In this document: positions 674-42,028 of the stretch, piece after piece
Layout: each line of letters starts with the position of its first letter
Position numbering within the stretch: the first letter of the stretch is position 1
DNA from: Nitrososphaeria archaeon
Lineage (GTDB): Archaea; Thermoproteota; Nitrososphaeria; Geothermarchaeales; JDFR-13
Assembly: GCA_027078545.1 (NCBI GenBank)
Contig: JALWXN010000004.1
Coordinates: forward strand, 160,001 to 224,000
Length of the DNA: 64,000 nt
Reading direction: 5' to 3'
The notes under the pieces: model-generated
The model's input: the letters and a program-made list of their open reading frames with translations, nothing else
Database searches by the model: none
Told to the model about the DNA's origin: nothing
Translations under genes and position numbers: made by a program

Positions 674-850
674 TTAGGGATCTATACGCCTCAGCTCCTC
701 CACCAAATTTTTTACCTTGAGGTCTAGGTAGGGGTCGTCCGGAGAGAACTTGGCTGGATGGGCTACATTAGTAGATCCTCCACAGATGGGGCACCTCTCC
801 TTCAAAGTGTATCGGCCACATTCTCTACAGATCCTTATCCTACTCTTCAT
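674..850 (-). CDS. nop10: H/ACA RNP protein Nop10 (58 aa, not in ORF track)
   Basis: Manual translation MKSRIRICRECGRYTLKERCPICGGSTNVAHPAKFSPDDPY...; Zn ribbon and HPAKFSP motif; directly downstream of aIF2alpha. Confidence 0.95.
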   Translation of the reverse strand: MKSRIRICRECGRYTLKERCPICGGSTNVAHPAKFSPDDPYLDLKVKNLVEELRRIDP

Positions 851-19792: not shown

Positions 19793-19890
19793 GGGCCCGT
19801 GGCCTAGCCTGGTCAGAGCCCCTGCCGGGCGGCTAGGGCGCCCGGCTGATAACCGGGAGGTCGCCGGTTCAAATCCGGCCGGGCCCACCA
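19793..19890 (+). tRNA. tRNA-Ile(GAT) with 20-nt non-canonical intron at about 22/23 (19817-19836)
   Basis: Acceptor GGGCCCG/CGGGCCC, anticodon arm CCCGG-CTGATAA-CCGGG, T-loop TTCAAAT, encoded CCA; extra 20 nt in D arm with relaxed BHB. Confidence 0.93.
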
Positions 19891-23027: not shown

Positions 23028-23125
23028 GCCCCGGTGGTGTAGCCCGGCCAGCATACCGGCCTGTCGACAAGTATCCACGGGCGGTCAGCCGGTGGACCCG
23101 GGTTCAAATCCCGGCCGGGGCGCCA
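23028..23125 (+). tRNA. tRNA-Asp(GTC) with 20-nt canonical 37/38 intron (23067-23086)
   Basis: Acceptor GCCCCGG/CCGGGGC, anticodon stem CCGGC/GCCGG, central BHB helix CTGT/GCGG, encoded CCA. Confidence 0.94.
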
Positions 23126-27122: not shown

Positions 27123-27279
27123 CCCCCCGTAGCTCAGTGGCTAGAGCGGCCGGCTGTAGCTGTCTCGGCCCACGGATGACTGGGCGTATGCCTTGGGTTG
27201 AGTCCGTGGCGGCCGGCGGAGACAGGGCGATGTCCCCTCCAGCGGCAGGTCGTGGGTTCAAATCCCACCGGGGGGACCA
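27123..27279 (+). tRNA. tRNA-Tyr(GTA) with two introns: 37/38 (27160-27221, 62 nt) and 39/40 (27224-27242, 19 nt)
   Basis: C1-G72 acceptor CCCCCCG/CGGGGGG plus A-CCA; removing both introns gives perfect arm GCCGG-CTGTAGA-CCGGC; both introns fit BHB geometry. Confidence 0.88.
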
Positions 27280-31842: not shown

Positions 31843-31931
31843 GGAGGGGTTCCCCTAGCCTGGCCAACGGGGCGCGGTTCAGGCCCGCGTGGCGTAGGCC
31901 TTCGTGGGTTCAAATCCCACCCCCTCCACCA
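31843..31931 (+). tRNA. tRNA-Leu(CAG)
   Basis: Acceptor GGAGGGG/CCCCTCC, anticodon arm CGCGG-TTCAGGC-CCGCG, long variable arm, encoded CCA. Confidence 0.95.
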
Positions 31932-32703: not shown

Positions 32704-33804
32704 GTGTATAAGCAAGGTATTCCCCTAATACTTATAGCAATACTCGTAACCGGGTTAACTCCCATCCAGGCCGTGTCGATTGATGATGATCCTCCCGTAA
32801 GGGTGTTGCTGAAGTATATTGATGAGGGCTTCACCCATATAGGGGATGGGGTCTATGTCATCGACTACATGGAATATCTAAAGCCTCGTAACAGGACTGT
32901 ATTAGTAAATGGCGAGAAGCTCCCCCGCGAAGCGGAGGAGTTCATGAGTAACCACGTACTGAATTCCCAGATCATGAAGATGTATGAAAAATACGTGTCT
33001 AGCATAAAGTCCCTAGTGGTCACGGCCCTCGAGATCGAGCAGAGCGTCACCGTGATACCCACGATACACCACTACAACGAGAAGAAGGATATAGTCCTCC
33101 TGAGATACCGTATAAACCTCTTCATGGACGACAAGTATAGAGACTTTGTAGAGGCCAAGATAAAGGAGCTCTACCCAGTCCTGATCAGACACTTCAGGGC
33201 ATGGTCGTCAAAGGCAGCTGAACAGTTCTACTACATGACGGGGATAGACATCAGCGGCGAGTATAGGAACGAGACCATCATAGTCCTCATAGCAGACATG
33301 AAGACGGAGCCCCACTACATAGTGGGGAGGGAGGTATATATCCCCAAGGGCTCCAGAGTAGTCGAGGACCCGATCAACGTCACCCACCTAAAAGAGGTGC
33401 TGAGAGACGCCATGAATAGATGGCCAGAGCTGGTGGGCCATGACTACTCATTCGGAATACTCAGGATATTCCTCACAGCATACGACAACCCCCCAACAGA
33501 GGAGATACTGGCGAAGGCAACCATGCTGAGGAGGGAGATACTGGGGAGGGACGACCTACCCATACAGGTAGTCCTCTTCAGAAAAATTCGCATCACCGAC
33601 ATAGAGATAGCCCCATACAGACCAGCAGAGACATCGCTACAGCCCCCCACAGACCCTGAGACCCAGCCCCAAACCCAGGAACAGCAAGACCCAGCGGCCG
33701 AGGAAGACCCGAGCCCAATCACCGCCATAGCCATAACAGCCACCACAGCCACGATACTAGCAGCACTAACCCACATACTGAGACGCATCAGGAGAACAGG
33801 GTAG
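32704..33804 (+). CDS. Secreted, C-terminally anchored cell-surface protein of unknown function
   Basis: Signal-peptide-like N-terminus, P/Q/E/T linker, C-terminal hydrophobic helix followed by RRIRR. Confidence 0.75.
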   Translation: MYKQGIPLILIAILVTGLTPIQAVSIDDDPPVRVLLKYIDEGFTHIGDGVYVIDYMEYLKPRNRTVLVNGEKLPREAEEFMSNHVLNSQIMKMYEKYVSSIKSLVVTALEIEQSVTVIPTIHHYNEKKDIVLLRYRINLFMDDKYRDFVEAKIKELYPVLIRHFRAWSSKAAEQFYYMTGIDISGEYRNETIIVLIADMKTEPHYIVGREVYIPKGSRVVEDPINVTHLKEVLRDAMNRWPELVGHDYSFGILRIFLTAYDNPPTEEILAKATMLRREILGRDDLPIQVVLFRKIRITDIEIAPYRPAETSLQPPTDPETQPQTQEQQDPAAEEDPSPITAIAITATTATILAALTHILRRIRRTG

Positions 33805-33840
33805 GAGCCAAGAACCAGCCGGACAACCCCCCACTAAACA

Positions 33841-33856
33841 AGGTAAAACTTATATA
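33841..33856 (+). promoter_or_regulatory. BRE + TATA box of 16S rRNA transcription unit
   Basis: AGGTAAAA-C-TTATATA about 210 nt upstream of mature 16S. Confidence 0.75.
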
Positions 33857-33888
33857 CCCACCCCCATAAACATAAAGATGGAACACCA

Positions 33889-33963
33889 GTCCGTGTGGCG
33901 GTATCCAGGCGACAGAGGCGCCCGCCTCGAATGACCCCTGGATCTCCACACACGGACACACCA
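33889..33963 (+). ncRNA. H/ACA-type pseudouridylation guide hairpin in 16S pre-rRNA leader
   Basis: 9-bp lower stem directly followed by ACA, 5+5 nt pocket, 7-bp upper stem, K-turn-like apex, 14 nt from pocket top to ACA. Confidence 0.72.
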
Positions 33964-33999
33964 CCAGATGTCGGTCCAACCGAGGAAAAGATGGTTGGG

Positions 34000-35615
<1,616 letters not shown>

Positions 35616-35670
35616 TTTTGTTATGTTGTTTGTTGTGCTATTGTTTTGATTGTTGTTTCTAGGTGTTTGT
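35616..35670 (+). terminator. T-rich tract after the processing stem, probable terminator region
   Basis: Run of T-rich sequence immediately 3' of the stem; overlaps the end of a convergent gene. Confidence 0.4.
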
Positions 35671-36556
35671 TGAGTTGTTGTGTTGTTTTTGGTGGGTTGG
35701 TTGTTTCTATTCTGTTTTTTCGGGTTTGTTTGTAGTTGTGGGGTTTTAGTGTTTTTTTGAGTTTTTGTAGGGTTTTTTGTTTGTTGGTTTCGATTCTTAT
35801 TATGTATCCTTGTGGTTCGTCGTAGATCATTAGGGTTATGTGTGTGTCTGGCTGGGGTTTGTAGTGTGCCTCTATTTGTGGCCATCCCCAGTTCTGTGTT
35901 GATTCTAGGATTGGTGGTAGGTTGTTTTTGAGTGATTCTTCGAGTATTTTTCGGGCTATGTCTAGGTATGTCCTCATCTTCTCCCTCTTTGTTTGTTGGC
36001 GTGGGCGGGTGTGTCTTGTTATTCGTTCTTGTGTTACTTGTTTGAGTGTGTCTATTCCTTGTCTGACTAGGTTTTTTATGTGGGTTGTGTCGAGGGTTTC
36101 TAGTCTGTATCTGAGGATGGTGAATGCTACTCCGTCTGGGTGGATCTGTTCCTCTATGTCTAGTCCTTGTTGCCGTAGCTTCTCCGCGTTTTTTCTGCGT
36201 ATGTGGTGGTATTTGAAGGCTTCTGGGTATTTCTGCATTAGTTGTTGTAGGAATTCTCCTTTCCATGCTCCTTCCATTGGTTTTACTTCTTCCCATTCCT
36301 GGTCTAGGTCGAAGAGGATTGTTTCGAAGATCTTCTCTTTTGGTGTCTCGAGGGCTAGGATCATGTTGTCCATGTCTATCCAGATGGCTTCTATGGAGTA
36401 GTCCTCGATCAGGCTTACGGTTACTGATCGGTGGTCTATGGCTGTGGCTATCTCTGGGGGTATGGTCTCGTCCTCTAGTACTAGCTCGGTTATGACCCTC
36501 ATCAGGTCGTATGCCTTTGTTAGGCTCCTCATAACTCCCCCCTCTTCTCCTCCCAA
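35621..36556 (-). CDS. Hypothetical protein, paralog of 37293-38222
   Basis: 311-aa ORF sharing the YPEAF block and overall layout with the neighbouring 309-aa ORF; SD GGAGGGGG before ATG 36532. Confidence 0.75.
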   Translation of the reverse strand: MGGEEGGVMRSLTKAYDLMRVITELVLEDETIPPEIATAIDHRSVTVSLIEDYSIEAIWIDMDNMILALETPKEKIFETILFDLDQEWEEVKPMEGAWKGEFLQQLMQKYPEAFKYHHIRRKNAEKLRQQGLDIEEQIHPDGVAFTILRYRLETLDTTHIKNLVRQGIDTLKQVTQERITRHTRPRQQTKREKMRTYLDIARKILEESLKNNLPPILESTQNWGWPQIEAHYKPQPDTHITLMIYDEPQGYIIRIETNKQKTLQKLKKTLKPHNYKQTRKNRIETTNPPKTTQQLNKHLETTIKTIAQQTT

Positions 36557-41951: not shown

Positions 41952-42028
41952 GGGCCCGTAGCTCAGCCTGGCGGAGCACCGGGCTCATAACCCGGGGGTC
42001 GTGGGTTCAAATCCCACCGGGCCCACCA
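41952..42028 (+). tRNA. tRNA with CAT anticodon, most likely tRNA-Ile2 (agmatidine-modified)
   Basis: Cloverleaf with CTCATAA loop; acceptor stem GGGCCCG identical to tRNA-Ile(GAT) in this window; no A1-U72. Confidence 0.9.

Follow-up and report, generated by a model that had tools for sequence, protein, structure and literature searches.

A candidate Pab19-family H/ACA guide in the 16S rRNA leader of a Nitrososphaeria archaeon, predicted to act mainly on helix 31

Introduction

In archaeal H/ACA RNAs, L7Ae binds a K-turn, Cbf5 anchors on the ACA box and the lower stem, and the uridine held 14 nt from the ACA is isomerised to pseudouridine. The helix-31 uridine of the small-subunit rRNA is a P-site nucleotide, and its pseudouridine is methylated by Nep1/Emg1, an enzyme mutated in Bowen-Conradi syndrome. 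During maturation of archaeal rRNA, BHB cleavage frees and ligates the spacers. Yeast snR35 is a nucleolar snoRNA in its own right, with the two hairpins typical of eukaryotes and no K-turn. It shares with the hairpin described here the predicted target position (18S psi1191) and the downstream Nep1/Emg1 step (PMC2853112). Methylation of the helix-31 site by Nep1 occurs only once pseudouridine has been formed there (PMC2853112).

The closest described RNA is Pab19 of the Thermococcales (also Pfu19, Tko-19 and Tba19; RF02794). Pab19 guides modification of the P. abyssi 16S helix-34 U1017 in vitro, the in vivo signal being obscured (PMC2377435). The position of this RNA in the rRNA leader has been noted for T. 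kodakarensis, where it is considered likely to be co-transcribed (PMC4247193). A 2026 preprint finds it in the leader of all 34 Thermococcales genomes with helix 34 as its target, reports few reads covering Tba19 in T. barophilus and leaves open why it sits in the rRNA precursor (bioRxiv 10.64898/2026.03.23.713588). T. kodakarensis carries m1psi917 in helix 31 (PMC11551388), a site that has been assigned to none of the seven published Pyrococcus H/ACA RNAs. In S. islandicus the helix-31 and helix-34 sites are both modified, by guides sR435 and sR136 respectively. The first of these is a single hairpin that guides the same helix-31 site (16S U930) and also U477; it tolerates weak 5'-strand pairing, and its 16S targets share similar 5' flanks (PMC11077068). 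Unlike the hairpin described here, sR435 has eight targets and no reported leader location.

Here we read the first folded domain of the 16S precursor of a Nitrososphaeria archaeon as a Pab19-family H/ACA guide aimed mainly at the helix-31 uridine U34994, with a probability of roughly two in three. Coordinates are those of the window, the whole stretch of 64,000 nt that was analysed.

The 16S transcription unit

The 16S rRNA gene forms a stand-alone unit with the following features.

33842..33856, + strand: BRE and TATA box of the 16S unit (sequence read by eye; start inferred)
33968..34004, + strand: second leader hairpin with a box C/D-like K-turn motif, degenerate here (as in ligated archaeal rRNA spacers)
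34000..34040, + strand: leader strand of the 16S processing stem with BHB (helix 34015-18, 4 bp; bulge 34019-21; register set by hand)
34063..35561, + strand: 16S rRNA gene, unlinked to 23S (rRNA annotation)
35575..35619, + strand: trailer strand of the processing stem with BHB (helix 35594-97, bulge 35598-600; sequence)

The TATA box, of archaeal type and identified by eye, lies at 33849-56 and predicts a start near 33880. The hairpin follows this box and precedes the processing stem, at a distance of 107 nt from the conserved 16S start motif. In the stem, 34000-40 pairs with 35575-615, and a T tract follows the trailer strand. The promoter geometry fits one transcript running from the TATA box through the hairpin into the 16S rRNA, and it is very probable that the hairpin is part of the pre-16S transcript.

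The surroundings of the unit gave several further observations. The trailer bulge at 35598-600 reads UGG, compared with the usual A-ending triplet. The plus strand is A/C-rich before the 16S gene (33500-34060) and G/T-rich after it (35560-36100), far past the processing stem. The 23S and 16S genes are on opposite strands and about 80 kb apart (23S at G000:C4:112285-115359, - strand), and a second, partial 23S gene on a 2-kb contig (C3) may be foreign. A gene for Nop10 is present within the window (725-850, - strand; Pfam PF04135), together with five tRNA genes on the + strand (27123-27276, 19793-19890, 23028-23122, 31843-31931 and 41952-42028). The tRNA at 27123 spans 154 nt and probably contains an intron; ARAGORN misses this gene and the one at 23028, and Rfam at gathering score misses the tRNA-Leu(CAG) at 31843.

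Structure of the leader hairpin

The hairpin is composed of the following elements.

33889..33960, + strand: whole Pab19-family box H/ACA hairpin (fold, covariation, cross-detection by models)
33889..33897, + strand: 5' strand of the lower stem, 9 bp with 33949-33957 (fold, covariation)
33898..33902, + strand: 5' guide strand of the pocket (pairing scans)
33903..33943, + strand: upper stem, K-turn and apical stem-loop, the predicted L7Ae site (sequence, conservation)
33944..33948, + strand: 3' guide strand of the pocket, beginning 14 nt before the ACA (register counts)
33958..33960, + strand: ACA box (both A's invariant in 45 homologues)

An earlier note on this DNA, made from the letters alone, had described a hairpin with two stems, two pocket strands, an ACA and a 14-nt spacing, and all of these were located at the positions it gave. 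Folding of the leader region, which it had proposed as a check, showed the hairpin to be significant (-39.4 kcal/mol, z = -4.3, none of 200 shuffles as good). The upper stem is 7 bp (33903-09/33937-43). The K-turn, as read from the sequence, comprises a bulge at 33930-32, the pairs G33933.A33912 and A33934.G33911 and the closing pair C33913-G33929, beyond which there is a C.C opposition and then one bulged C. Within the K-turn TGA, the TG is invariant in alignment A1 and the TGA is at least 90 % conserved in alignment A2. The distance from pocket to K-turn is about 10 stacked layers, which conforms to the rule for archaeal H/ACA RNAs of a K-turn about 10 bp above the pocket (PMC4652768). The hairpin thus displays the archaeal H/ACA arrangement of lower stem, pocket and upper stem, with an ANA box directly after the lower stem and 14 nt from the pocket top, within the 14-16 nt range.

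Conservation and range across archaea

A hairpin with CUCC exactly 14 nt before the ANA was found in 45 of 46 leaders of the class to which the window belongs, and also in most other Thermoproteota families sampled. A structural screen blind to the target selects the same hairpin in most of these loci. The one sampled class member without the leader hairpin (locus L043, genome G026) has a shorter hairpin in its place.

Covariation of the stems was sought by aligning the 16S leaders of relatives, as the earlier note had suggested, and was found: two-sided changes occur in 18 of 19 pairs, and 81 % of cells are paired in the stem alignment compared with 30-42 % when it is slid. In the Asgard set 83 % of cells are paired, in an alignment fitted to the model. 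Our covariance model R1 gave one match in each of 100 loci, 45 of which had trained it and all of which had been picked for showing the motif, and one match in this genome. When applied to unselected loci up to E = 1, it gave 21 matches, all at the leader position: 20 in the 28 Asgard loci and one in the 28 Halobacteriota loci. In most classes of Thermoproteota, and in many Asgard genomes, the 16S leader begins with a member of this family.

In relatives, the hairpin is typically preceded at 27-50 nt by a TATA-like box and followed 2-4 nt on by a box C-like word, and there is usually no TATA box between hairpin and 16S gene. In Desulfurococcales-type genomes (names ending in '-type' being inferred labels for the genomes of relatives) the hairpin is set 200-660 nt upstream and is followed by a second promoter, and one Thermoproteaceae-type genome (G204) has a free-standing copy far from the rRNA genes (L206:1502-1576). 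The hairpin thus occurs in three genomic states: inside the leader, adjacent with its own promoter, and free-standing. An AT-rich, promoter-like stretch precedes the free-standing copy. The R1 search found no hairpin in eight Sulfolobaceae-type, four Pyrobaculum/Thermoproteus-type and two Ignicoccus-type genomes.

Nep1 was present in 22 of 25 Thermoproteota, 11 of 11 Asgard and 2 of 2 Archaeoglobi-type genomes and in none of 10 other Halobacteriota genomes, nine of which also lack the hairpin. The occurrence of Nep1 follows that of the hairpin, though over few lineages, and Methanocaldococcus has Nep1 without a leader hairpin.

Other features of these leaders were also recorded. One member of the Halobacteriota without Nep1 keeps a hairpin (L184:1313-1395) whose 5' pocket strand no longer fits helix 31. 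In one locus (L003) the helix-31 loop, CAGCGCC, departs from the Nep1 motif; a search of its genome (G018, 91 % complete) did not find Nep1. Archaeoglobi-type loci (L168-L172) have an H/ACA-shaped hairpin with a diverged pocket directly after the TATA box, some 100 nt ahead of the 16S start; it is missed by R1, its helix-31 match is weak, and it may be one of the Afu sRNAs. The word CTTGCGGCC recurs in the last 30 nt before the 16S start in many leaders of Thermoproteota and Asgard archaea (L057-L112, L135-L153); it is absent from the leader of this genome. A Halorubrum leader segment (L191 / L118) is duplicated around an N, probably as an assembly artefact.

Relationship to Pab19 and other known guides

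Model R1, although built without Thermococcales, gave 26 matches of 31-41 bits in Thermococcales-type 16S leaders and no match in Methanocaldococcus-type 16S leaders. One Thermococcales-type match checked against Rfam was Pab19, at 96.9 bits, and the Pab19 model (RF02794) in turn matches one Thermoproteota leader at 39.9 bits against a cut-off of 55. RF02794, a Thermococcales-specific model, gave no match at the locus even at E 10, nor elsewhere in the genome, so the family link is drawn through our own model R1. Of the features that define the Pab19 family, the hairpin lacks the Rfam gathering score and the helix-34 match; it has homology by an independent model and a leader position ahead of a C/D-like hairpin. 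It is a distant member of the Pab19 family, at the known position of that family.

The two RNAs share the position in the 16S 5' leader, the fold, the ACA at 14 nt, the pocket core (GGCGG / CUCCA) and the C/D-like hairpin downstream. They differ in that the 5' strand is 5 nt here and 15 nt in Pab19, that the small upstream hairpin of Pab19 is absent here, where the 16S unit is stand-alone, and that here the helix-34 match is broken while the helix-31 match is perfect on the 3' strand.

Two further RNAs were considered. Pf9/Pab160 was rejected as a known guide of the helix-31 site; its target numbering does not match helix 31, and the target presumably lies near E. coli position 950. For sR435, model and pattern searches for a relative of the leader hairpin in the Sulfolobaceae, the family of S. 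islandicus, were blank or at chance level.

Target prediction in this genome

Three segments of the 16S rRNA were of interest as targets of the pocket.

34989..35001, + strand: predicted main target, helix-31 loop, U34994 (E. coli 966; pairing scans)
35068..35086, + strand: helix-34 site U35073, corresponding to the proven Pyrococcus target of Pab19; match broken here (pairing comparison)
34536..34551, + strand: possible second target, 530-loop U34541, the S. islandicus psi477 position (U.U mismatch, 3-nt spacer)

T34994 is 16S position 932 and corresponds to E. coli 966, yeast 1191 and M. jannaschii 914, the helix-31 motif being identified as in previous work (PMC2853112); both the numbering and the motif agree with the earlier assignment of this base to the E. 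coli-966 position. The pocket forms five of five Watson-Crick pairs with the 5' flank of T34994 and five of six pairs on its 3' side, where the mismatch is G33901.A34997 and the sixth pair borrows the top base of the lower stem; the pairing is as the earlier note described it, including the single G.A mismatch. As expected of a UN pocket, there is no mismatch at -1 (G-C) or +2 (A-U).

A genome-wide scan found no better target for the pocket: among about 595,000 uridines on both strands, T34994 alone forms 10 or more of the 11 possible Watson-Crick pairs. When the genome was screened conversely for guides, the leader hairpin was the top H/ACA-shaped guide for T34994 (23.0, next 19.6), and under canonical rules it was no candidate for T35073. 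These pairing results support the helix-31 U34994 as the best predicted target of the hairpin in this genome, and the geometry together with the genome-wide pocket match supports the reading of the element as an H/ACA guide hairpin within the 16S precursor. Cbf5, Nop10, Gar1, L7Ae and Nep1 are all encoded; Tsr3 was not found in this genome (92 % complete). It is likely that the guide makes pseudouridine at U34994.

Helix 31 and helix 34 across the family

The pocket reads both helices, as CUCC(A) at 14 nt against the helix-31 flank and as CCUCC(U) at 15 nt against the helix-34 flank. Among 65 Thermoproteota loci, which include kin and so provide counts rather than a test, 60 form Watson-Crick pairs between helix 31 and all of the first four 3'-guide bases at exactly 14 nt, and in 43 the five 3'-guide pairs to helix 34 are complete. 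In 13 loci including this genome, the helix-34 flank has changed from GGAGG to GGUGG with the guide unchanged. Here this gives a wobble at -1 through an upper-stem base, a U.U at -3 and five extra unpaired bases, and the duplex fails the canonical screen.

Under a strict register, in 62 loci from 30 groups, the helix-31 uridine was the top conserved 16S uridine (mean 8.50, next 7.44), conserved uridines overall scoring 3.86 +/- 1.30. When register slack was allowed, two other sites drew level with helix 31, and under lenient scoring, in which some strand ends were misplaced, helix 31 stood alone at the top in only 15 of the 68 genomes taken singly. A site at 16S position 856, close to E. coli 891, was rejected as a candidate; it scores well only with a slipped register and misfits the AUCC and GUCC guides.

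Covariation between pocket and helix 31, another check proposed in the earlier note, was found in part. In Calditenuaceae-type genomes the helix-31 flank CGGAU occurs with the guide AUCCG, two matched changes, in three of the four cases tested. In the fourth (G189), where a CGGAG flank had been predicted, the prediction failed: the compensation at -1 is broken and a C is kept against the U. Two Asgard loci have GGAC with the guide GUCC; four clean helix-31 pairs occur in two of nine Asgard loci and the pairing is mostly imperfect. The compensated cases represent few independent events, and covariation between guide and target is limited; the guide 5' strand is unresponsive to helix-31 changes at +5 in six families. 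Nearly all Thermoproteota have the G.A at +3 and many relatives add a mismatch at +2, so the 5' strand of the pocket is better explained by helix 34 or the 530 loop than by helix 31. In one family (f43: L053, L054, L056, L060) the ANA is one base closer, which fits helix 34 at 14 nt and does not fit helix 31.

In Thermococcales there is a C.U mismatch at -1 of helix 31, and helix 34 is clearly the better match; a mismatch at -1 is unproductive under published rules (PMC4652768). An ungapped scan, which cannot score the bulged helix-34 duplex, nevertheless put U915-917 at the top in three Thermococcales loci (among 718, 417 and 222 uridines) and in second place in one more. The hairpin family is the best candidate guide for m1psi917 in T. 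kodakarensis.

Alternative readings

If the hairpin were an ordinary Pab19, its sole real target would be the helix-34 U35073, and the fit to helix 31 would stem from the GGAG flank that both sites have. Helix 34 is the only tested target of the family, a non-canonical duplex does not prevent Pab19 from modifying U1017 in vitro (PMC2377435), and helix 34 forms the stronger duplex in Thermococcales and in many Thermoproteota. Families with a changed helix 31 have moreover kept a 5' strand that fits helix 34, and the ANA spacing of f43 fits helix 34 only. Against this, the duplex of this genome is broken by its GGUGG flank, and the Calditenuaceae changes follow helix 31 and break helix 34, which makes a helix-34-only role improbable for this hairpin. 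The 530-loop uridine U34541 (E. coli 518 position) is a still less probable main target for Thermoproteota. The 5' strand pairs 6-8 bp there, the site is second best in this genome and a close third in the flexible family scan, the equivalent U477 is pseudouridine in S. islandicus, and Asgard genomes, which have C at this position, mostly carry GGCGU instead of GGCGG. The duplex has, however, a constant U.U mismatch at -2 and, here, a 3-nt spacer. Thermococcales have G at this position and yet retain GGCGGC, so this site cannot be what conserves the 5' strand. The case for the 530-loop uridine as the cause of the invariant GGCGG is weakened by this, and helix 34 explains that sequence better.

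The hairpin could instead bind the H/ACA proteins yet be mainly a tethered scaffold for folding or processing that, early in assembly, holds strands of the head domain and decoding site (helices 31, 34 and 18) apart in the manner of eukaryotic snR30, with modification secondary or absent. Three functional segments of the 16S rRNA fit the pocket, all of them with imperfect pairing close to the uridine; the hairpin stays beside the rRNA genes even after gaining its own promoter, is kept in three genomes in which Nep1 was not found, and is followed at a fixed distance by a second K-turn hairpin. Yet the 14-nt ANA spacing and the base beside the target uridine are near-invariant, as catalysis requires, Pab19 is catalytically active, and Sulfolobaceae, Thermoproteaceae and Methanocaldococcus-type leaders dispense with the hairpin. 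We consider a scaffold role about as doubtful as a role confined to helix 34, if not slightly more so, and retain the reading of the hairpin as a guide aimed mainly at helix 31.

Proposed mechanism and significance

From the observed fold, conservation, position and encoded partners we infer protein binding and pseudouridine formation as follows. L7Ae would bind the K-turn, and Cbf5-Nop10-Gar1 would load on the ACA hairpin during transcription. The pocket would then grip the unfolded helix-31 loop, and Cbf5 would turn U34994 into pseudouridine, the substrate for N1-methylation by Nep1. Since Tsr3 was not found, modification probably ends at m1psi. Across the family the pocket may be multi-target, serving helix 31 at 14 nt, helix 34 at 15 nt and perhaps the 530-loop uridine; in this genome helix 34 would have drifted out of match while helix 31 still fits. 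Once cut at the BHB and ligated, leader and trailer would form a by-product of about 165 nt that contains the guide. The predicted by-product contains a C/D-like motif, as does the ligated leader-trailer spacer RNA of Tang et al. 2002, which is described as C/D-like only, its function stated as unknown, in the passage of PMC7038931 that cites it.

A guide within the precursor would tie its own supply to rRNA synthesis. Action in cis on its own precursor is a tentative proposal, which we rate below even odds; the sparse Tba19 reads would fit a short-lived tethered guide. Action in trans is also possible, and the hairpin copies with their own promoter must work in trans. More speculative, and unlikely on balance, is the proposal that a Pab19-type hairpin was the ancestral, cis-acting helix-31 guide, pre-dating the split of Thermococcales, Archaeoglobi, Thermoproteota and Asgard, the source of the pseudouridine in m1psi917 and the functional forerunner of snR35.

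The leader location of an H/ACA guide is already known from Thermococcales. The earlier note knew of no leader-embedded guide for the helix-31 site; the leader-embedded Pab19 is in print, and the statement stands for the target, no paper assigning a helix-31 target to the Pab19 family having been found in the literature. The note overlooked that in most relatives the pocket fits helix 34 as well, and possibly the 530-loop uridine. An earlier mention of the hairpin in Archaeoglobus (Tang et al. 2002) may exist. According to the searchable literature, what is new is the archaea-wide range and the helix-31 target.

Regarded so far as confined to Thermococcales, the family now extends to most Thermoproteota and many Asgard archaea, in which it escapes current Rfam annotation. 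The three genomic states of the hairpin offer a natural series for a guide leaving the precursor that it serves. The predicted target ties the helix-31 m1psi of T. kodakarensis, to which no guide has been assigned, to the question of precursor location raised by the preprint, and the prediction is directly testable in a genetically tractable organism.
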